From Candidatus Babeliales bacterium (GTDB lineage: Bacteria > Babelota > Babeliae > Babelales > JANWKD01): a stretch of 64,000 bases of DNA. The notes under the pieces were generated by a model. That model had not been told where the DNA came from and ran no database searches. It saw only the letters and a program-made list of their open reading frames with translations. Location: contig CAVRJO010000002.1 of NCBI GenBank assembly GCA_963722255.1, forward strand, positions 1 through 64,000, read 5' to 3'. Both the position numbers and the translations under genes were made by a program. Each line of letters starts with the position of its first letter. The first letter of the stretch is position 1. Below, one piece after another: positions 15,489 through 51,861 of the stretch.

Positions 15489-16385
15489 TTACTGCGCCAA
15501 GGGATCAATGGAATAGTCTTTTTCTAGTTTATAAAGACCCGTAACAGTGTTTACTTGAATAAATTCTTCCTGCTCCTTGCCATCGCGAAATACCTGAACT
15601 CTAAATTCAAGGGGTTGAACAGGTCTGCTTAAAATTTCCAATTCTTCTTTTAAATTATCAAGATAAAGTTTATAGGTCTTTTCTAAATAAGGACGTTGAT
15701 CTTTCTGCGCTTGAATTATCTTCTTTTTTGTTGTTGCGTATTCAGCTAATATTTTTTTGAATTCTGGATAGAGATCTTTCAATCGATAAAGAGGTTGCAT
15801 GATTTCTAGAGCCCCAAGATTTGCAGTTTTCACAGCAAGCTGTAAAGCCGGAAGATCAAATAGAAATGCACCATGCTTGTAAAGTTTGCGTATAATCTCT
15901 TTTTGTTTTTCTTTTGAAGCACCTGCAGTATTTTCAATTGCAATCATTAAAGGAGTTTTTCCTTCTCTATTGTGCTCATTAATGTATTTTTCTTCTGCAA
16001 GTCGTTCAATCATATCATCAATGGCTTCACTACTTAAAATTGCTGTTCGTTCTCCTTTTATCTTCTGCCCAAAAGCAGTGAATAAATCTTCCATTTGCTG
16101 AGACTTTGGTTTTAAAATCCAAAAAGAACCCGTATCGGGCGCTACAACTTGTGGCCTATATGCGCCAGGTGATGTCACAAAAGCTCTTGAAGACACTTTT
16201 TTTGAGGAAGGAGTTGGTCTTTGCCAAGAATATGCTTCAGAAAGTGAACGAACACTTCTTGATGGTCTCAAAAAGCTTGCCCCTTGACGTACCCCTGTTC
16301 TTGTCCGTTGCAAACCAAAGGCTGAATAAAAAGAGCACAATGCACAAATGGCTAAAATAAGGTGAACATATATATTTTTTAACAT
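15489..16385 (-). CDS. Ankyrin repeat protein, secreted
   Basis: NREGKTPLMIAI...KLYKHGA; signal peptide followed by an Arg/Ser-rich stretch. Confidence 0.75.
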   Translation of the reverse strand: MLKNIYVHLILAICALCSFYSAFGLQRTRTGVRQGASFLRPSRSVRSLSEAYSWQRPTPSSKKVSSRAFVTSPGAYRPQVVAPDTGSFWILKPKSQQMEDLFTAFGQKIKGERTAILSSEAIDDMIERLAEEKYINEHNREGKTPLMIAIENTAGASKEKQKEIIRKLYKHGAFLFDLPALQLAVKTANLGALEIMQPLYRLKDLYPEFKKILAEYATTKKKIIQAQKDQRPYLEKTYKLYLDNLKEELEILSRPVQPLEFRVQVFRDGKEQEEFIQVNTVTGLYKLEKDYSIDPLAQ

Positions 16386-16512
16386 AGGAATATAACCTCT
16401 CTATTATAACAGATAGTATATATCCTATTATACACAAAAAATTTCTATTTGTCAATAATATTAAGACGACCATATAAATCTGGATTTTTGGTGCAATTTC
16501 CCTGGGTAGCTA

Positions 16513-16610
16513 TAAAAATAAACCACCGCATTGACTTGCGTCAATGCGGTGGAAAAAAGGAGAGTAGTAATGAAGCCTAAGTTAAATCTGTAAATTCTTG
16601 CTGCTTAACA
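16513..16610 (-). ncRNA. Candidate small RNA
   Basis: Upstream TTGACA-16-CATACT promoter; 13-bp terminator stem with GCAA loop and U-rich tail; CU-rich segment TTCATTACTACTCTCCTT. Confidence 0.45.
16523..16552 (-). terminator. Intrinsic terminator
   Basis: CCACCGCATTGAC-GCAA-GTCAATGCGGTGG followed by TTTATTTTT on the minus strand. Confidence 0.85.
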
Positions 16611-16780
16611 GTTTTTAGTATGCTGCTTATTTATCAAATGTCAATAATTTCTTTTAAATTCTATCTTTTAAATACAGCGTTTTTTACCATTTATTACTAA
16701 ATATGATATAGATTATTTTTATATCTGTCAACAGCAATAAAAACAGAGGATATTTGCAAAAGGGCCTATTTTTCAGCATG

Positions 16781-17866
16781 TCACAATAATTGGATATGTT
16801 GTACGGTATGAGCAGATAATAAGTTGTCAAAATAAGTTGAATTTGCAGGAGAAGTAAAAATAAGCTGGCATTCAAGAGCAAGCATCAATGAAACTAATAA
16901 TTCGCCCCTATAGTAATCAAAATCGGTCATAAAATCATCAAGAAGAAAGAGGACCTGGCCATGCTTAGTCGTAATATCTTGAATTTGGGCTATTTTTATA
17001 AGCATAATAATAAGTTTTTGTTGCCCTCGCGAAGCAAATGAGCGTGAATTTTTGTGACAAAATTCGATTGAAAAATCTTCTAAATGAGCCCCAAAAAGAG
17101 AACGCCGCATAATTGATTCCGCATTCTGCAAATCACTATTATGCCGCAGAAAAGTATCAAAAGACTGGGCTTCTTCACTTCTCTTTGCATGATAGGTAAA
17201 GATAAGTGTTAACCCCTCTCCAAAAGTTGTCTTCAGCATATAATTTGTCTTATCTTCTAGGCTTTTAAGTAATTGTTTACGATAATTTTGAATAACTATA
17301 GTTTCTTGCCACAACTGCTCCGTCCATAACTGATATGATTCCTGCGTAAATCCTCCTCTATACAATAAGGCGTTCCTATTTTCAAGAACTTGTTTATAGC
17401 GCCTGCTCTGCATTAAAAATTCAGGAAAATCTAATGCAAGAGCTTGATCAAGAAAAAGCCGTCGCCCATCAGGACTACCCTTGATAAGAGATAGGTCGTC
17501 TTCAGTAAGTGTAACAACTCTATAAAGCTTTGAAATGTCTTTATATGAGGTGATAGACCGCTGATCAATTTTAACAAGCCGCTTTTTTTTAGAAAATCCC
17601 ATCGTAAGCTCATGAGGCAAGGAAACAGCATCGATTGATTCATTTATTTTTACTCGTATAAAAAAATTTTCATCATCAAAGCTAACAAGTTCACGTGGTA
17701 TATGCGTTCGAAATGATCGCAAATAACAGGCATAATGCAAAGCCTCTAAAATCGAAGATTTTCCAGAACCATTTGGGCCAACAATGCAGGCAATATTAGA
17801 TGAAAAATCCAAAGAATAATTTTTGAAGCATCGAAAATTTTTAAGAGTAAGTTGTTCTATCAACAC
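16781..17866 (-). CDS. recF: DNA replication/repair protein RecF
   Basis: LKNFR, GPNGSGKS, SRGQQK, LLDD; directly downstream of dnaN. Confidence 0.95.
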   Translation of the reverse strand: MLIEQLTLKNFRCFKNYSLDFSSNIACIVGPNGSGKSSILEALHYACYLRSFRTHIPRELVSFDDENFFIRVKINESIDAVSLPHELTMGFSKKKRLVKIDQRSITSYKDISKLYRVVTLTEDDLSLIKGSPDGRRLFLDQALALDFPEFLMQSRRYKQVLENRNALLYRGGFTQESYQLWTEQLWQETIVIQNYRKQLLKSLEDKTNYMLKTTFGEGLTLIFTYHAKRSEEAQSFDTFLRHNSDLQNAESIMRRSLFGAHLEDFSIEFCHKNSRSFASRGQQKLIIMLIKIAQIQDITTKHGQVLFLLDDFMTDFDYYRGELLVSLMLALECQLIFTSPANSTYFDNLLSAHTVQHIQLL

Positions 17867-17880
17867 AAGAGTAAATTACC

Positions 17881-19002
17881 TTAATGCGTTGGTGAAACAG
17901 GCATAACTAAATAGGTCATCTGATATTTTTCTTGCTCTGTATGAAATATAATTGGCTTGCTTGAATTTTTTAAATAAAAAGCAATATTCTCTTCGCCAAA
18001 TGATTGCAATCCATTTAATATATAAGGAGCATAAAATCTAATATCAAGATCACTGCCAGAAAATCCCTTAAGGGGCAACGCTTCCTGTAATTTGCCAACT
18101 TCCTTATTTTGCATTGCAACATTCAAAAGATCATTATTAAAGGCAAATGTCGTTGCAAGAAATTGACCGGATAATAAACAAACTGAACGACGCAATGTCT
18201 TCACAAAATGGTTCCGATCAACTGATGCCGGAATAAAGTCTTCTTTATTAAGAATGGTTCGATATGCTGGGAAGCTATCAGATAAAAGCTTTGTAAAAAA
18301 GTTAAAATCTTCTCCTGAAAAAACCACTTGGTTGCCACAGATTCCTAAAAAAACAAAACTGTTTTCAGAATTTTCTAAGATTTTTTTCAATTCAAAAATT
18401 GCACGTCGAGGCAAAAGCCATTTCTTTTCTTGTTCTAAGGATATTGCTGTCGATTCAACTTGCGCAAGACAATGTCCATCGGTTGTAGTCATTGTCAATC
18501 CCTGAGGAGATACCTCTAAAAAAAGACCATTAAGCGCAGAATTTGCATTATTTTGCGGAATTAAAAAAGCAACTTTTTCAAGCAATGTTAATAAAAACTG
18601 CGCATCGATATGCATAAGATTTTCAATGCGTTCAGGAAATGGGGGAAACCCCTCCGGATCTTTTACATTAAGAGAAAGCTGAACATTATTTGCCTCAAGT
18701 GAGACCTGATTATTTTCAAAAGAAAAAGTTATCTCATCATCAAGCTCTTTAACTAAATCAAAAATTCGTTTACCGGAAACTAAAAATGAGTATGCAGCGC
18801 TCATATCATTATGTGGCAAAAGGCATGTTGATTGCAAACTAATTTCTAAGTCAGTGCTTTTAAGTACCAGCTCTTTATTGCCAACTTGAAACAAGATGGA
18901 TGAAGTAGCATCTAATGTTGTACGCTTTGTACAAATTGGTTGCATTGATGAAAGTACCGAAAGTAACTTTTTTTGATCTATAGTAAACGTTGTTATGGCC
19001 AT
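17881..19002 (-). CDS. dnaN: DNA polymerase III beta clamp
   Basis: STDLEISL, TTDGHCLA, YLVMP motifs; 373 aa. Confidence 0.96.
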   Translation of the reverse strand: MAITTFTIDQKKLLSVLSSMQPICTKRTTLDATSSILFQVGNKELVLKSTDLEISLQSTCLLPHNDMSAAYSFLVSGKRIFDLVKELDDEITFSFENNQVSLEANNVQLSLNVKDPEGFPPFPERIENLMHIDAQFLLTLLEKVAFLIPQNNANSALNGLFLEVSPQGLTMTTTDGHCLAQVESTAISLEQEKKWLLPRRAIFELKKILENSENSFVFLGICGNQVVFSGEDFNFFTKLLSDSFPAYRTILNKEDFIPASVDRNHFVKTLRRSVCLLSGQFLATTFAFNNDLLNVAMQNKEVGKLQEALPLKGFSGSDLDIRFYAPYILNGLQSFGEENIAFYLKNSSKPIIFHTEQEKYQMTYLVMPVSPTH

Positions 19003-23247: not shown

Positions 23248-24697
23248 TGTTAGCGCAAAGTGATAAGTTCCTATTATAGCGCAAAGTAAAAAGTTCCGGT
23301 TTTTAGGGTAAACTTAATCTTGTAAACAAAAAGAAAAACTCTAAAAATGCAACGGAACTTATATGGAATATATTACCATGAATCGCAAAGAACGAGAACA
23401 GGCAAAAGTGTTTGTTCAGGTTAAAGAAGGAAAAATGACACAGGCAGAGGCTGCAGCCCGTCTGAGATTTACAGAGCGGTGGGTCAGAGAAAAATATGGA
23501 AGATATTGTGAATCTGACGACTTTGGCCTTGTACATGGCAATAGGGGAAAAGAAAGCCCAAATAGATGGGATCAAGGAGAAGAACGATTGTTAATCTCAT
23601 TGTTAGAAAGCGATTGGCAAGGCTTTGGGCCAACCTTTGCGGCTGAAAAACTTAAAGAGTTGCATGGAATAAAGATAAGTCGAGAAGCTGTTAGAAAGGT
23701 CATGATTAAGGCAGGAATATGGCAACCTAAAAAACAGCGCAGCAAGCATCGCAAGCGACGAGAAAGAAGGCGTATGTTTGGCATAATGATTCAGCTTGAT
23801 GGCTCTCCACATGACTGGTTTGAAGGGCGTGCTGGGGTATGTACCTTACTTGTTTTTATTGACGATGCTACTGGCCAAATCCTTTGGCTTGAGTTTGCCC
23901 CTTCTGAATCGATGCATGCTTTAATGACCGCAACTAAAAATTACGTTGAAAAATATGGGATTCCTCAAACTTTTTATACTGACCACGGTTCTGTTTTCCA
24001 TGTTAATTTGAGTAATCAAGAAAATATTAAAAAGACCCAATGGGAGCGCGCTTGTAAAGATTTGGGAATTGATGTTATACATGCCAATAGTCCTCAGGCA
24101 AAGGGCCGCGTTGAACGTTGCAATCAAACCCTTCAAGATCGCCTTATTAAGGAAATGAGACTTGCTGGGATATCATCAATAGATCAAGCAAATAATTATC
24201 TGCGAACAAGCAATTATATTGCAAAGCATAATGCTGCATTTCAAGTTCCTGCTGCCCAAGAAGGCGATGCCCATGCTAGTGCTCAATCATTTGATTTAAA
24301 CGATATATTTAGCACACAAGAGACTCGTATTCTTACGAATGATTTTACTATTACCTACCAAAAACAGATTTTTCAATTAAGCGATCAGCAAAAAACAATC
24401 ATTTTTCCAAAAAATACCATTGTTGTTAAAGTACATTTAAATGGAACCATAAAACTGTGGATTCGAAAAACAGAACTTTCTTTTAGCGAAATCTACCAAC
24501 GACCAACCCCCCAAATTCAGGAGAAAAAAATATCTGACTGTATACCAAGAAAGCCTTCAAAAAATAGCCAACGTTGGGCAGGCGGGTTGCCCCCTAGTGA
24601 GAGTAGGTTGAAGCCGGTCGCGCCGGCCGTGGAGGCGCTTTAATGTTAGGAACTTTTTACTTTGCTAAATACCGGAACTTTTCACGTTGCGTTGACA
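23248..24697 (+). mobile_element. Insertion sequence, IS1202/ISNCY-type, 1450 bp, complete
   Basis: Ends TGTTAGCGCAAAGTGATAAGTTCC and (reverse complement) TGTCAACGCAACGTGAAAAGTTCC, each with an inner copy GCAAAGTAAAAAGTTCC; flanked by an 18-bp direct repeat. Confidence 0.93.
23363..24643 (+). CDS. DDE transposase (ISNCY/IS1202 group)
   Basis: HTH N-terminus; QLDGSPHDWFEGR, IDDATG, YTDHGSVF, SPQAKGRVER. Confidence 0.95.
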   Translation: MEYITMNRKEREQAKVFVQVKEGKMTQAEAAARLRFTERWVREKYGRYCESDDFGLVHGNRGKESPNRWDQGEERLLISLLESDWQGFGPTFAAEKLKELHGIKISREAVRKVMIKAGIWQPKKQRSKHRKRRERRRMFGIMIQLDGSPHDWFEGRAGVCTLLVFIDDATGQILWLEFAPSESMHALMTATKNYVEKYGIPQTFYTDHGSVFHVNLSNQENIKKTQWERACKDLGIDVIHANSPQAKGRVERCNQTLQDRLIKEMRLAGISSIDQANNYLRTSNYIAKHNAAFQVPAAQEGDAHASAQSFDLNDIFSTQETRILTNDFTITYQKQIFQLSDQQKTIIFPKNTIVVKVHLNGTIKLWIRKTELSFSEIYQRPTPQIQEKKISDCIPRKPSKNSQRWAGGLPPSESRLKPVAPAVEAL

Positions 24698-28892: not shown

Positions 28893-29855
28893 TTATTGTT
28901 TTGCAATATGCAAAAAATAGTCTTGCAAAGTTGGCTTCTCTATGGATATTTGAGAGTACGCAACTTCCTTTTGTGCAAGTTTTGATAAAAACTGAGCAAC
29001 ATCTCGCTCATCAATGTGAATTTCAATAAAGTGATCACTAACCTTATAGTATAATTTTTGCTCTTGTGCTAACTGTTCTGATTTTACCAAGCTTTCTTTG
29101 CCAACCATCAAACTAACACGCGTTTTTGAAATGCTTGAAGCTATTTCTTCCGGTGTATTATTTGCAATTATTGAACCATTTTTTAAAATTAATACTCGAT
29201 CGCATATTTCTTCAACTTCTGCCATATTATGTGAAGTAAAAAGAACAGAAATTTTACGTTCTTTTTGTTGCTGCACTACAAAATTTCGAACATCAAATGC
29301 CACATCAGGATCTAAGGAAGCCGTTGGTTCATCCAGTAATACAATTTTTGGATCAGCCAAAAATGCTTTAGCCAACATTACACGTGTTGTTTGACCGGCA
29401 GAAAGTAGCCCTGCAGGCTTGTCTCTGATTCCCCACATACCAAAGAAACTTAAAAATTCCTTAATTTTTGCTTTCCTTAATTCAGTTGGAAGCCCAAATA
29501 GACGACCATAAATATCAAGGTTCTCAAAAATCGTTAAACGACCGGGCAATTTTGTATAAGCACTTGCAAATGCAACATGTTGCAAAATATCAGAACGATG
29601 TTTAAAAAAATTTTTTCCAAAGTAGGTTATTGTCCCTGATGTTGGTGTCATTAAACTTAAGAGAATTTGGATAGTTGTTGTTTTGCCAGCACCGTTTGGA
29701 CCTAAAAAACCTAAAATTTCTCCTTCTTGCAATGAAAAAGAAATTCCATTAACAGCAATAAATTCTTTTTGAGGACCAAATATTTTTTTTTGTTTAAATA
29801 TTTTTACTAAATTGTCAACAATAAGAACAGAATTGTTTGAACCAATCATATTCAC
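28893..29855 (-). CDS. ABC transporter ATP-binding protein
   Basis: GPNGAGKTT, LSAGQ, LLDEPT, SH. Confidence 0.95.
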   Translation of the reverse strand: MNMIGSNNSVLIVDNLVKIFKQKKIFGPQKEFIAVNGISFSLQEGEILGFLGPNGAGKTTTIQILLSLMTPTSGTITYFGKNFFKHRSDILQHVAFASAYTKLPGRLTIFENLDIYGRLFGLPTELRKAKIKEFLSFFGMWGIRDKPAGLLSAGQTTRVMLAKAFLADPKIVLLDEPTASLDPDVAFDVRNFVVQQQKERKISVLFTSHNMAEVEEICDRVLILKNGSIIANNTPEEIASSISKTRVSLMVGKESLVKSEQLAQEQKLYYKVSDHFIEIHIDERDVAQFLSKLAQKEVAYSQISIEKPTLQDYFLHIAKQ

Positions 29856-42250: not shown

Positions 42251-42529
42251 TTACGTAAATAACCGTTCGATATCATTGATACATTTTTTAATCATTTGCA
42301 TGTTATTTTTTTGTTCAGTCTCTAAAGCAAGCAATTGTAATGATAATTTAAGAGCAACCAAAACAGCTTTATGATAATTACTGACATGAGGAGCATTGTA
42401 GCCAATTTCTTTCATAAGGCCATCAACTTTTCCTGATGCATCAATTACACTGGTTTCTGATTCATCACCTAGTAAAGTATACGGTTCATTTAAAATAGTA
42501 ACAGTAAACTTTCTGATTTCTTGCTTCAT
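42251..42529 (-). CDS. zapA: Cell division protein ZapA
   Basis: VTILNEPYTL...VDGLM...AVLVAL; synteny with rny. Confidence 0.75.
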   Translation of the reverse strand: MKQEIRKFTVTILNEPYTLLGDESETSVIDASGKVDGLMKEIGYNAPHVSNYHKAVLVALKLSLQLLALETEQKNNMQMIKKCINDIERLFT

Positions 42530-42792
42530 AATTGATCTTGATTGCTTACTAATGAGTCAATGTTTTTTATTATTTCATCAACTGCTAATTTTGCAAGTGC
42601 TTTTTCTTCTGCAAAATTTTCCTGATCTGACAAAATCGAAGTTTTAAGGCTATCGAGCTCAAATACAAGATCAGCATTTTTTTGCACAAGTGTAGTATTT
42701 TCTGTTTTAACTTCTTGTAGCTGTGCTTGTAATTCTTTAACTAATGTTATTAATTGAGCGGTCTTCTGTTCAAGAATATGCAAAGTTTCCAT
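42526..42792 (-). CDS. zapB: ZapB-like coiled-coil protein
   Basis: METLHILEQKTAQLITLVKEL coiled coil upstream of zapA; RBS AAGGAGAGTAG. Confidence 0.6.
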   Translation of the reverse strand: METLHILEQKTAQLITLVKELQAQLQEVKTENTTLVQKNADLVFELDSLKTSILSDQENFAEEKALAKLAVDEIIKNIDSLVSNQDQL

Positions 42793-42865
42793 CTACTCTC
42801 CTTCATTGACTATTTTCAATTCTCTAACATTAATCTTATTGATACACTCTTAATGATGTCAAGAA

Positions 42866-50575: not shown

Positions 50576-51272
50576 TTTATAGAATAATAGCATATATATT
50601 TTTAGATACTAATGGAGGTCCATTGAACATATTTAAATTTTTAGCCTATTGTATAGCAATTCCATTGATGTTTCATCCGATTGGGTGGATCGTTTTGTTA
50701 TGTCATGCTATTTGGCGCATATTAGATTGAAAACTGTTATCAAATTTTATTATCTGACTCGAGTAGGTAGTTTTAATGCATAAAAAGCCTTATGCAAAAG
50801 AGGATGGCCCTGCTTTCCCATTTAAGGGTAGCTTTTTGTTTTTGGTTTTTGTCTCAATTTAGTTTTTTCACACATACTAAGAAATAATTTCTTAATCGTC
50901 TTGAATTTTGTAGAGTGAAAGTTGCTTATAAGCATTAGGGACGTTCGAATGGTACGTTTTATGTGTAATTTTTTTGACGTTAATTGGTTAGGTTTTGAAT
51001 TGTGTTATAACATTTCTTTTGCTTGTAGTTTGTTATTATGATCAAGACTTAAGGAGAGTAGTAGTAATAAAATAGAAGTCCTTATACCTAATACCTATAA
51101 TAGAGCCCTCTCAATTAATATAGTCCCTCAATAAGACTTATCGCTGGTCGTTAAGCTGCTCTACTTCTATATAATGTTTCTATTATATGAACAACACATC
51201 AGGGCAACCGCACTATAAAGATTGAATCAATGCGGGGAAAATATGTTTGAAGTGGCAAATTAAATTCTCGAT

Positions 51273-51379
51273 TGTCATTGCGAGCGAATGCGCGGCAACC
51301 CAGTTATAAAGACTTTTCATTTTACTTACTGGGTCACCACGGACCTCTTTGAGGCCCTCGTGATGACCTCGTGATGACA
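51273..51379. repeat. RPE-like palindromic element with duplicated right end
   Basis: TGTCATTGCGAG...ACCCAGT...ACTGGGT...CTCGTGATGAC, the last 11-mer in tandem. Confidence 0.65.
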
Positions 51380-51470
51380 TGGTGCTTGACTTGTTAATTG
51401 TTCAATTTTTATGAAACGACACATAGCACTACATAGTACTTTGTACTTTATTCCTATATATAACGTCATA

Positions 51471-51556
51471 TAATGCCCACTTAGTTTATCAATAGTTATC
51501 AATAATACTCGTGTAATGCCCACTTAGTTTATCAATAGTTATCAATAATACTCGTG
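51471..51556 (+). repeat. Perfect 43-bp tandem duplication
   Basis: TAATGCCCACTTAGTTTATCAATAGTTATCAATAATACTCGTG twice. Confidence 0.95.
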
Positions 51557-51762
51557 CCCCAGGGGATTTCACGTAGTCAAGCCAAAGAGCCTTAAAAAAG
51601 CTTTGTTTAAAAGCTTATTAAGGCTCTTTGGTGAAGACGGAGTGATCCCTACCCTTAACAGCGCTTACATAACTCGGTAATTATGCGACCTATGGGCAAG
51701 AGATGCCGATGGAAAATGCTATAAAGTTGAGCGTATCACACTAAAATAATTTAACAAAAAAA

Positions 51763-51790
51763 TTGACATTTTCTTATTTTTAATTATAAA
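51763..51790 (+). promoter_or_regulatory. Sigma70-like promoter of dnaK
   Basis: TTGACA-16-TATAAA about 70 nt upstream of the ATG. Confidence 0.45.
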
Positions 51791-51861
51791 TTAGATACAA
51801 AAATATGCTTCAATAAAGCAAATAAGCTGCTAGTAAAAATAAAAAACACAGGAAGGAATAT

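Follow-up and report, generated by a model that had tools for sequence, protein, structure and literature searches.

A small RNA gene conserved downstream of dnaN-recF in the Dependentiae, with an unpaired stretch complementary to translation initiation regions

Downstream of recF in a Candidatus Babeliales bacterium of the phylum Dependentiae (TM6, Babelota) lies a 395-nucleotide (nt) spacer, bounded by recF (16781-17866) and an ankyrin-repeat open reading frame (ORF; 15489-16385), whose minus strand had been predicted to encode a small RNA (sRNA) carrying an extended complement to ribosome-binding sites (RBSs). Is this a gene, and if so what would its RNA do? The locus lies within the window analysed here, the first 64,000 nt of contig CAVRJO010000002.1 (assembly GCA_963722255.1), from a host genome of 1.62 Mb in 2 contigs that has 34% G+C and is 93% complete. 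All coordinates are those of the window, and since the sRNA gene is on the minus strand its 5' end has the higher coordinate. Judged by comparison among genomes, by which the gene, its strand and its architecture are shown, the minus-strand feature is a real small RNA gene. We favor a model in which its product, at approximately 16612-16513 on the minus strand, is probably a ~100-nt trans-acting and chaperone-independent repressor of translation that resembles the cia-dependent small RNAs (csRNAs) of Streptococcus and is conserved across the Dependentiae. The parts of the gene, all on the minus strand, are these:

16639..16644, minus strand: -35 hexamer TTGACA of the sRNA promoter
16617..16622, minus strand: -10 hexamer CATACT of the sRNA promoter
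about 16612, minus strand: predicted transcription start, some 5-7 nt past the -10 hexamer
16587..16612, minus strand: variable 5' part, weakly folded here and a hairpin in most relatives
16553..16586, minus strand: conserved single-stranded region UUUAACUUAGGCUUCAUUACUACUCUCCUUUUUU, 34 nt, unpaired in the minimum free energy fold here
16573-16559, minus strand: invariant 15-mer UCAUUACUACUCUCC, anti-AUG and anti-Shine-Dalgarno
16523..16552, minus strand: terminator stem-loop, a perfect 13-bp hairpin with 8 G-C pairs and a GCAA loop
16513..16522, minus strand: U-rich terminator tail TTTATTTTTA, the inferred 3' end of the RNA

The promoter hexamers are separated by 16 nt and match the consensus at 10 of 12 positions. 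After the -10 hexamer come ~60 ORF-free nt, then UUCAUUACUACUCUCCUUUUUU, then the hairpin and finally UUUAUUUUUA; no minus-strand ORF of at least 30 amino acids (aa) lies inside 16513-16644. The original prediction had described a promoter, about 100 ORF-free nt and a GCAA-capped terminator on this strand, and all three are present. For a 111-nt stretch of the locus the predicted fold has -26.8 kcal/mol (z = -3.8 relative to 200 shuffles), and in its centroid structure the terminator is the sole paired part. As in trans-acting sRNAs generally, the locus has its own promoter and a Rho-independent terminator outside ORFs, together with a conserved and accessible seed; ARAGORN reported no tRNA in the window. 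A second and better promoter-like site, TTGACA-17-TATCAT (11/12), lies between the recF stop codon and the sRNA promoter (16731-16703, minus strand) and could yield a longer form of the sRNA, of roughly 180 nt.

The evidence that this is a gene comes from its relatives. When the spacer downstream of recF was compared with 40 related genomes by blastn, strong matches were found at query positions 215-288 only, which correspond to window positions 16586-16513. Identity over this segment is 80-98% in most families, and the similarity ends at the U-rich tail (query positions up to 288-290). The 21-mer complement, allowing 3 mismatches, occurs in 36 of 41 genomes, and its reversed control in none. 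We aligned 39 sRNA copies from 35 loci and built a covariance model on this alignment, in which every one of the 39 copies has the same UCAUUACUACUCUCC between GGCU and a U tract. Of 151 genomes of the phylum, 148 have a match to the model (E <= 0.001); apart from the host, all 150 are labelled 'same order', and 14 genomes have 2-3 matches each. Scanning 185,579 species genomes for the exact 19-mer returned at least 80 loci and at least 81 instances. Among the matches listed, 74 of 81 instances are full covariance-model matches, in records named Candidatus Dependentiae, TM6 or Babeliales or in otherwise labelled metagenome-assembled genomes; the remaining 7 score below 32 bits and have other labels or are start regions of genes. 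One of the full matches is in AP025250.1, the genome of the 'Noda2021' strain.

The terminator helix has changed in these lineages in the manner of a structured RNA. Compensatory changes are found at 11 of its 13 pairs in the 39-copy alignment, 97.6% of helix cells are paired, and double changes number 101 as against 29.8 in shuffles, of which 0 of 500 reach the observed value; sliding the register lowers pairing to 25-50%. The G-U pairs of the helix occur on the minus strand only. The promoter points the same way: a promoter-like site scoring at least 10/12 lies upstream on the sRNA strand at 61 of 104 distinct loci versus 4 of 104 on the opposite strand. This comparison used a scored scan; the strict pattern was found at 30 of 104 loci, which is an undercount. 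TTGACA-N16-CATA[C/A]T is found again in many relatives, and 26 of the 30 strict matches have CATACT or CATAAT as their -10 hexamer. The RNAs predicted in this way have a median length of 104 nt, and in 49 of 61 the 5' part, whose sequence is unconserved, folds at -5 kcal/mol or below. In 39 of the 61 no position of the invariant 15-mer is predicted to pair, and in 47 at least 80% of it is unpaired. Because conservation spans the phylum, the terminator covaries and a conserved promoter lies on the same strand, the feature stands far above chance. In these respects the original prediction of a free-standing minus-strand sRNA gene with an exposed anti-RBS stretch has held, up to and including a covariance model that extends across the phylum.

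What might such an RNA bind? UUUAACUUAGGCUUCAUUACUACUCUCCUUUUUU reads as an anti-start-codon CAU, a spacer, the anti-Shine-Dalgarno CUCUCC and a U tract, and the exposed stretch is complementary at every position to AAAAAAGGAGAG-UAGUA-AUGAAG, in which an A-rich leader and a Shine-Dalgarno sequence are followed, after a spacer of 5 nt, by a start codon and a lysine codon. We propose that the sRNA would be transcribed from its own sigma-70-type promoter just downstream of dnaN-recF and end at a Rho-independent terminator that it would have in common with the dnaN-recF unit, giving a variable 5' hairpin, an unpaired, near-invariant stretch and a terminator hairpin. The unpaired stretch would pair with the RBS, and in some targets also with the start codon, of mRNAs with an A-rich, extended GGAG(AG) Shine-Dalgarno, and this pairing would block 30S binding and lower translation. 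Searches of the 93%-complete genome returned no gene for Hfq, CsrA or ProQ (PF17209, PF02599, PF04352), and the sRNA would therefore act without these proteins.

The start regions of the host genome offer many possible partners. The 3' tail of the host 16S rRNA reads GGATCACCTCCTTTCG, and the start regions have a G peak at -9/-8; GGAG is present in 322 of the 1492 called start regions, GGAGAG in 22 and GAGTAG in 7. In duplex predictions, 78 of the 1492 pair with the sRNA at -18 kcal/mol or below. At the same threshold there are 24-45 partners for nine shuffles that keep the anti-Shine-Dalgarno, 19-23 for six full shuffles and 9 among internal gene windows. The CAU is correctly spaced from the anti-Shine-Dalgarno, and strong partners are therefore roughly doubled relative to the shuffles that keep only the latter. 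Many start regions of secreted 'MK...' proteins are among the predicted partners in the host, and in relatives the complements of 15-21 nt found elsewhere are likewise start regions of unrelated, mostly secreted proteins. Complements of the 15-mer with up to 2 mismatches are slightly commoner than its reversed control, judged by eye from per-genome columns and unsummed. At two loci of family f3 (L202, G134:C22, and L204, G156:C1) the start region matches the complement of the sRNA core exactly over 15 nt. The genes at these two loci encode a secreted protein with long glycine/arginine-rich runs (..RGGGGGGGG..).

Three further matches were set aside. The best non-self duplex, at C1:53836 (-29.7 kcal/mol), lies antisense inside a coding region. 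The multi-copy match GAGAGTAGGTTGAAGCC is the 3' end of an insertion sequence (IS) transposase ORF. A two-block complement to the 5' domain of 23S rRNA and the 3' region of 16S rRNA is at chance level, as the minimum on the rRNA operon is better for 15 of 25 shuffled sRNAs than for the real one. As a separate observation, the window contains a 426-aa ORF (23363-24643, plus strand) with weak matches to an rve integrase and to HTH_32, and its G+C-rich 3' end (CCCCCTAGTGAGAGTAGGTTGAAGCCGGTCGCGCC) recurs at no fewer than 7 places in the genome. Copies of this element are found at C1:185036, 364259, 489796, 701836 and 758859 and at C2:532991, and it looks like a multi-copy IS element in a genome that otherwise has 34% G+C.

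The original prediction rested on an 11-mer, AAGGAGAGTAG, which it had found as the RBS of zapB and once more at 51051. Exact copies are present at both places, and the third copy in the window, at 16557 on the plus strand, is the opposite strand of the sRNA gene itself. The two remaining sites are:

42793..42803, minus strand: AAGGAGAGTAG, directly before the ATG of a ZapB-like ORF; a perfect 11-nt complement and a candidate target site
51051..51063, plus strand: AAGGAGAGTAGTA, in a 1.3-kb noncoding stretch upstream of dnaK; AAGGAGAGTAG extended by TA

With up to one mismatch there are 3 matches to AAGGAGAGTAG in the window against 0.46 expected, a number that 2 of 100 shuffles reach. The site at 51051 is followed by no start codon and has no match in 5 relatives, and it is most likely a chance match, so we do not count it as a target. 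The stretch in which it lies has features of its own. Some 1.3 kb upstream of dnaK (50576-51861) hold no ORF of at least 100 aa, which is unusually long for a genome that is 82% coding by crude ORF calling, and only short pieces of this stretch are conserved in relatives. At 51271-51323 (plus strand) it carries an element of 40-50 nt with 41 matches in relative G003 and several more in G001 and G004, at 88-95% identity; this is a small dispersed repeat.

The candidate target sites that are best conserved are those of two division genes. The ZapB-like ORF has 88 aa (42526-42792, minus strand) and is followed by zapA; its match to ZapB has E = 3e-4, below the Pfam cut-off, and the ZapA match has E = 3.9e-11. 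The predicted duplex of its start region with the sRNA in the host has -23.7 kcal/mol, a value inside the span of the five best-scoring start regions out of 1492, and for ftsZ the value is -20.9 kcal/mol. The ftsZ leaders of relatives repeatedly carry GGAG(AG)TAGT, as in AAGGAGAGTAGTATG of G001 and GGAGTAGT of G032, G005, G012 and G029, which together come from five families; GGAGAG is present in 8 and GAGTAG in 5 of 30 ftsZ start regions, again from five families. Across genomes, with dnaK and the GGAG-bearing start regions of the host for comparison, the duplex energies are:

ftsZ, 30 genomes: 17 at or below -18 kcal/mol; median -18.2 kcal/mol
zapB, 30 genomes: 15 at or below -18 kcal/mol; median -18.2 kcal/mol
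dnaK, 29 genomes: 0 at or below -18 kcal/mol; median -8.5 kcal/mol
GGAG-bearing start regions of the host genome, 322: 13% at or below -18 kcal/mol; median -13.6 kcal/mol

Ranked by mean energy on ftsZ and zapB, the real sRNA beats 91-99 of 100 shuffles that keep only CUCCUUUUUU or CUCUCCUUUUUU; ranked by the number of partners at or below -18 kcal/mol, it beats 90-97 of 100. We regard ftsZ and zapB as the best conserved candidate targets, and as leads rather than findings. The dnaK start regions (L256-L285, 29 genomes) keep a weak AAAGGA-type Shine-Dalgarno throughout the phylum, and GGAG occurs in 2 of 29 of them versus 25 of 30 for ftsZ and 22 of 30 for zapB.

A number of results weigh against a repressor with this mode of action, and some of them bear on ftsZ and zapB in particular. 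Exact complements to the 34-nt single strand are found at 188 (10 nt), 54 (11 nt) and 9 (12 nt) sites genome-wide and are not enriched, as 257, 227 and 259 of 300 shuffles, respectively, have at least as many. The whole 1.62-Mb genome holds only the three exact copies of AAGGAGAGTAG, one of which is the sRNA gene's own opposite strand, and for this reason the 11-mer is not a genome-wide extended RBS. A class of genes that share such an RBS, as originally proposed, is not what the counts describe, and the extended match also fails as a shared control element: besides the unconserved 51051 site, the GTAG extension at zapB is lost within the genus (relative G001 reads AAGGAGAGCGCATG). The ftsZ motif is absent from many families, f19 for example. 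Shuffles that keep only CUCCUUUUUU or CUCUCCUUUUUU already average -15.5 to -16.7 kcal/mol on ftsZ and zapB, so that most of the pairing signal comes from the anti-Shine-Dalgarno/U block and the extension adds little; the two start regions are strong predicted partners, but only in small part through the extended match that had singled out zapB. The rank tests on these genes treat relatives as independent, which they are not, and so overstate significance. By Pfam, no function is common to the 20 best predicted targets of the host genome. Among the public sequencing runs listed, three soil DNA runs (small shares) and no RNA run hold the locus, and the transcript, its ends, its level and its targets are for that reason inferred only. 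Finally, the invariant spacer UUACUA exceeds what an anti-Shine-Dalgarno seed with many targets needs, and could reflect a protein or ribosome partner instead.

This last point leads to the alternative that the RNA is real and binds a protein or the 30S subunit, not particular mRNAs, whether by titrating a protein that binds single-stranded pyrimidines, such as ribosomal protein S1, or as a decoy for the 16S 3' tail. All 39 copies keep the 15 nt and their flanks unchanged, even in the spacer, which is beyond the need of most base-pairing seeds; the stretch has CUCCUUU in common with the 3' end of the host 16S rRNA; and a target list without coherence is what this alternative would lead one to expect. 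We nevertheless consider it unlikely. No candidate protein turned up, Hfq, CsrA and ProQ included; the lineage variants described below keep or duplicate just the anti-Shine-Dalgarno box, which fits Shine-Dalgarno pairing; and the ideal distance of the CAU from that box goes with about twice as many strong start-region partners as in shuffles that keep the box.

The constant position of the gene raises another alternative. Its upstream neighbors are:

16781-17866, minus strand: recF, directly upstream of the sRNA gene and on the same strand
17881-19002, minus strand: dnaN, conserved upstream neighbor of recF and the sRNA gene

In 26 of 28 loci the sRNA gene directly follows dnaN-recF on the same strand, and no second terminator was found in the window between recF and the sRNA hairpin, so that read-through transcripts of dnaN-recF must also end there. 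Both facts would suit a cis feature of the dnaN-recF transcript, either a conserved 3' untranslated region (UTR) with its terminator or an RNA derived from that 3' UTR, with a role in the stability or termination of the replication-gene mRNA or in the regulation of those genes. recF and the core are separated by a conserved promoter, however, and a mere terminator has no need of an invariant single strand. The predicted pairing with the start regions of dnaN (-11.7 kcal/mol) and recF (-8.6 kcal/mol) is weak, and at the two exceptional loci, L023 and L028, the RNA is found away from recF. A cis role therefore seems improbable to us.

Downstream of the gene the neighbors differ from locus to locus, and include ankyrin, DOT1, subtilase, WD40, leucine-rich repeat, RuvC/DnaB and thioredoxin proteins. 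In the host, a perfect consensus promoter (TTGACA-17-TATAAT, 12/12; 16455-16427, minus strand) just past the sRNA terminator drives the ankyrin-repeat protein, which has 298 aa and a signal-peptide-like N-terminus. In f1 relatives (L002, L004 and L006, in G003, G004 and G001) the gene adjoins one for a protein with a DOT1-like histone methyltransferase domain (PF08123, E 1e-20 to 1e-26), a candidate for a eukaryote-like effector.

The lineage variants show which part of the RNA is kept. In families f8 (G011, G031) and f16 (G019) the unit that follows recF is shorter; it is without CAUUACUA and has no anti-AUG part, and it keeps CUCCUUUCUCCUUUUUU or a similar CU-rich run, and the terminator. 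Families f7, f12 and f20 have a duplicated CU box and, in many cases, tandem copies of the gene, three of them in G015:C10, and in some lineages the tandem copies each have their own terminator. From these variants it follows that the pyrimidine box before the terminator is the part kept everywhere. In relative G036 an ORF follows recF directly, and the gene's apparent absence from G002 is explained by a contig that ends inside recF. When the host genome was scanned for CU boxes with a hairpin and a T-run after them, the sRNA locus was the only intergenic match, and one tRNA end was returned as well; the sRNA family that had been envisaged thus has no siblings in this genome and exists as tandem copies in some other lineages. 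The f8/f16 unit (L223, G031:C12; L224, G011:C37; L222, G019:C18) has a CCCCGG...CCGGGG terminator and is missed by the covariance model. The sRNA promoters of families f7, f12, f18 and f20 have another -35 region in common, CTTGATTTTCT, with ..GAATA.. after it (L036, G015:C10; L039, G030:C56; L042-L046, L060, L062, L083, L086 and L089), which suggests a lineage-specific regulator or sigma factor. In these lineages the CU box is likewise duplicated and tandem copies occur.

It is very improbable that the element acts as DNA, as a protein site or cruciform near dnaN-recF with no RNA involved. A fixed place beside replication genes across the phylum and an invariant sequence would agree with that reading, but not the compensatory changes with G-U intermediates, the suitably spaced sigma-70-like promoter confined to one strand, the U-rich tail, or the tandem copies with a terminator each. 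The gene upstream of dnaN, moreover, encodes an XerC/D-like recombinase, and dnaA is not adjacent. A functional plus strand, with a hairpin, a strong RBS and the mini-ORF MKPKLNL as a leader peptide or as the decayed start of a lost gene, is scarcely credible even though AAGGAGAGTAGTAATG looks like a textbook RBS and start codon and the 7-codon ORF that had been named as such a decayed start does exist, because over 104 loci the length of the mini-ORF ranges between 3 and at least 46 codons with nothing conserved beyond MKP, antisense recF comes next on this strand, T-run and conserved promoter both belong to the other, and the helix G-U pairs would become A-C mismatches.

Known RNA classes were considered as well. 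A type I toxin-antitoxin system was rejected, as the opposite strand has no conserved small ORF. The signal recognition particle (SRP) RNA is found elsewhere in the genome (C1:244522-244616), and the sRNA is therefore not a diverged SRP RNA. No 6S RNA was found anywhere in the host genome; identity with 6S was rejected for an RNA of ~100 nt whose one long perfect hairpin lacks the 6S architecture. In Rfam searches no family reached its gathering score in the window, and a 401-base search of 16400-16800 returned chance-level matches only. The best of these, to RF02846 (Ref84, Enterococcus sRNA 84), covers CUCCUU, UUCCACCG and the terminator; at 21.8 bits against a gathering score of 52 (E = 1.8) it too is at chance level and was discarded.

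We therefore return to the csRNA-like repressor, and to what it would mean. Dependentiae are widespread protist parasites and almost entirely uncultured. A literature search that combined the phylum names with sRNA and noncoding RNA (ncRNA) terms, the motif and the cultured members found no description of this RNA or of any Dependentiae sRNA, though supplements may list ncRNA predictions. In the accessible text of the Chromulinavorax destructans genome paper, ffs, rnpB and ssrA are the only RNAs listed, and that of the TM6 comparative genome paper makes no mention of the regulatory RNA terms searched. The idea of an undescribed system is borne out insofar as there is neither an Rfam match nor a published description, and needs tempering insofar as the system is of a known, csRNA-like kind: this is a new RNA family, an anti-initiation-region sRNA that is unusual in its phylum-wide invariance and its fixed place after dnaN-recF. 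Base-pairing sRNAs are usually restricted to a genus or family. Fifteen unchanged nucleotides and a constant genomic position in 148 of the 151 sampled genomes are unusual for such an RNA, and the covariance model, the predicted seed and the testable candidates ftsZ and zapB provide a handle on post-transcriptional control in organisms without genetics.

More speculatively, the sRNA beside dnaN-recF might hold back translation of ftsZ and zapB and so couple replication, or the stage of infection, to division. We regard this as a doubtful extension of the repressor model. The near-invariance of the unpaired stretch would then reflect co-conservation with the ftsZ leader GGAG(AG)UAGU seen in five families, the RNA would constitute a conserved checkpoint for division without a described counterpart, and it would show how reduced parasites time their division. 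If the link to division genes is false, the RNA is still a useful marker of the phylum and a new Rfam family.

How does this sRNA compare with characterized regulators? The 3'-UTR-type sRNAs DapZ and MicL have their own promoter and a terminator in common with the upstream mRNA. The Dependentiae sRNA is likewise placed at the 3' end of dnaN-recF with its own promoter and the sole terminator there, but its promoter lies downstream of the recF stop codon and not inside the coding sequence. IhtA of Chlamydia, another obligate intracellular phylum, is a conserved sRNA that represses translation of a developmental gene. The resemblance to the RNA described here is that each is conserved in an intracellular lineage and would prevent translation initiation on a small number of key genes; the sequences are unrelated, and no result here ties the Dependentiae RNA to a developmental cycle. 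LhrC, RsaE/RoxS and RNAIII of Firmicutes are sRNAs with C/U-rich seeds that mask Shine-Dalgarno sequences without Hfq, by means of UCCC or C-rich loops, often several per RNA. An exposed pyrimidine-rich seed for purine-rich RBSs is common to these and to our sRNA, for which Hfq-free action is plausible; the differences are that here there is no homology and the seed is a single linear CUCUCC box, duplicated in some lineages, combined with an anti-AUG.

The closest resemblance is to the csRNAs, for which Rfam has a model. These cia-dependent products of the ccn genes are ~50-200 nt long and have two stem-loops, the second of which is the terminator, with an unpaired, conserved middle complementary to the Shine-Dalgarno and AUG, and they repress comC by pairing at its translation initiation region (PMC3091779, PMC4507080). 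Their promoters are activated by CiaR through a direct repeat, NTTAAG-N5-TTTAAG, that replaces the -35 element (PMC3091779). Size, two stem-loops, an anti-Shine-Dalgarno and anti-AUG middle and the occurrence of sibling or tandem copies in some genomes are all shared by the Dependentiae sRNA, in which CAU-UACUA-CUCUCC is unpaired and a 5' hairpin is predicted in the 49 of 61 relatives noted above and is weak in the host. In contrast to the csRNAs, the Dependentiae RNA has a TTGACA -35 hexamer and no CiaR repeat at its promoter, the only matches to that repeat in the window, with up to one mismatch, being at 29449 and 43377, and it has no similarity to them in sequence or model, given that the best Rfam match here is the chance-level one to Ref84. 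It also belongs to another phylum, where it is single-copy in the host genome, fixed in place after recF and nearly invariant from one end of the phylum to the other.

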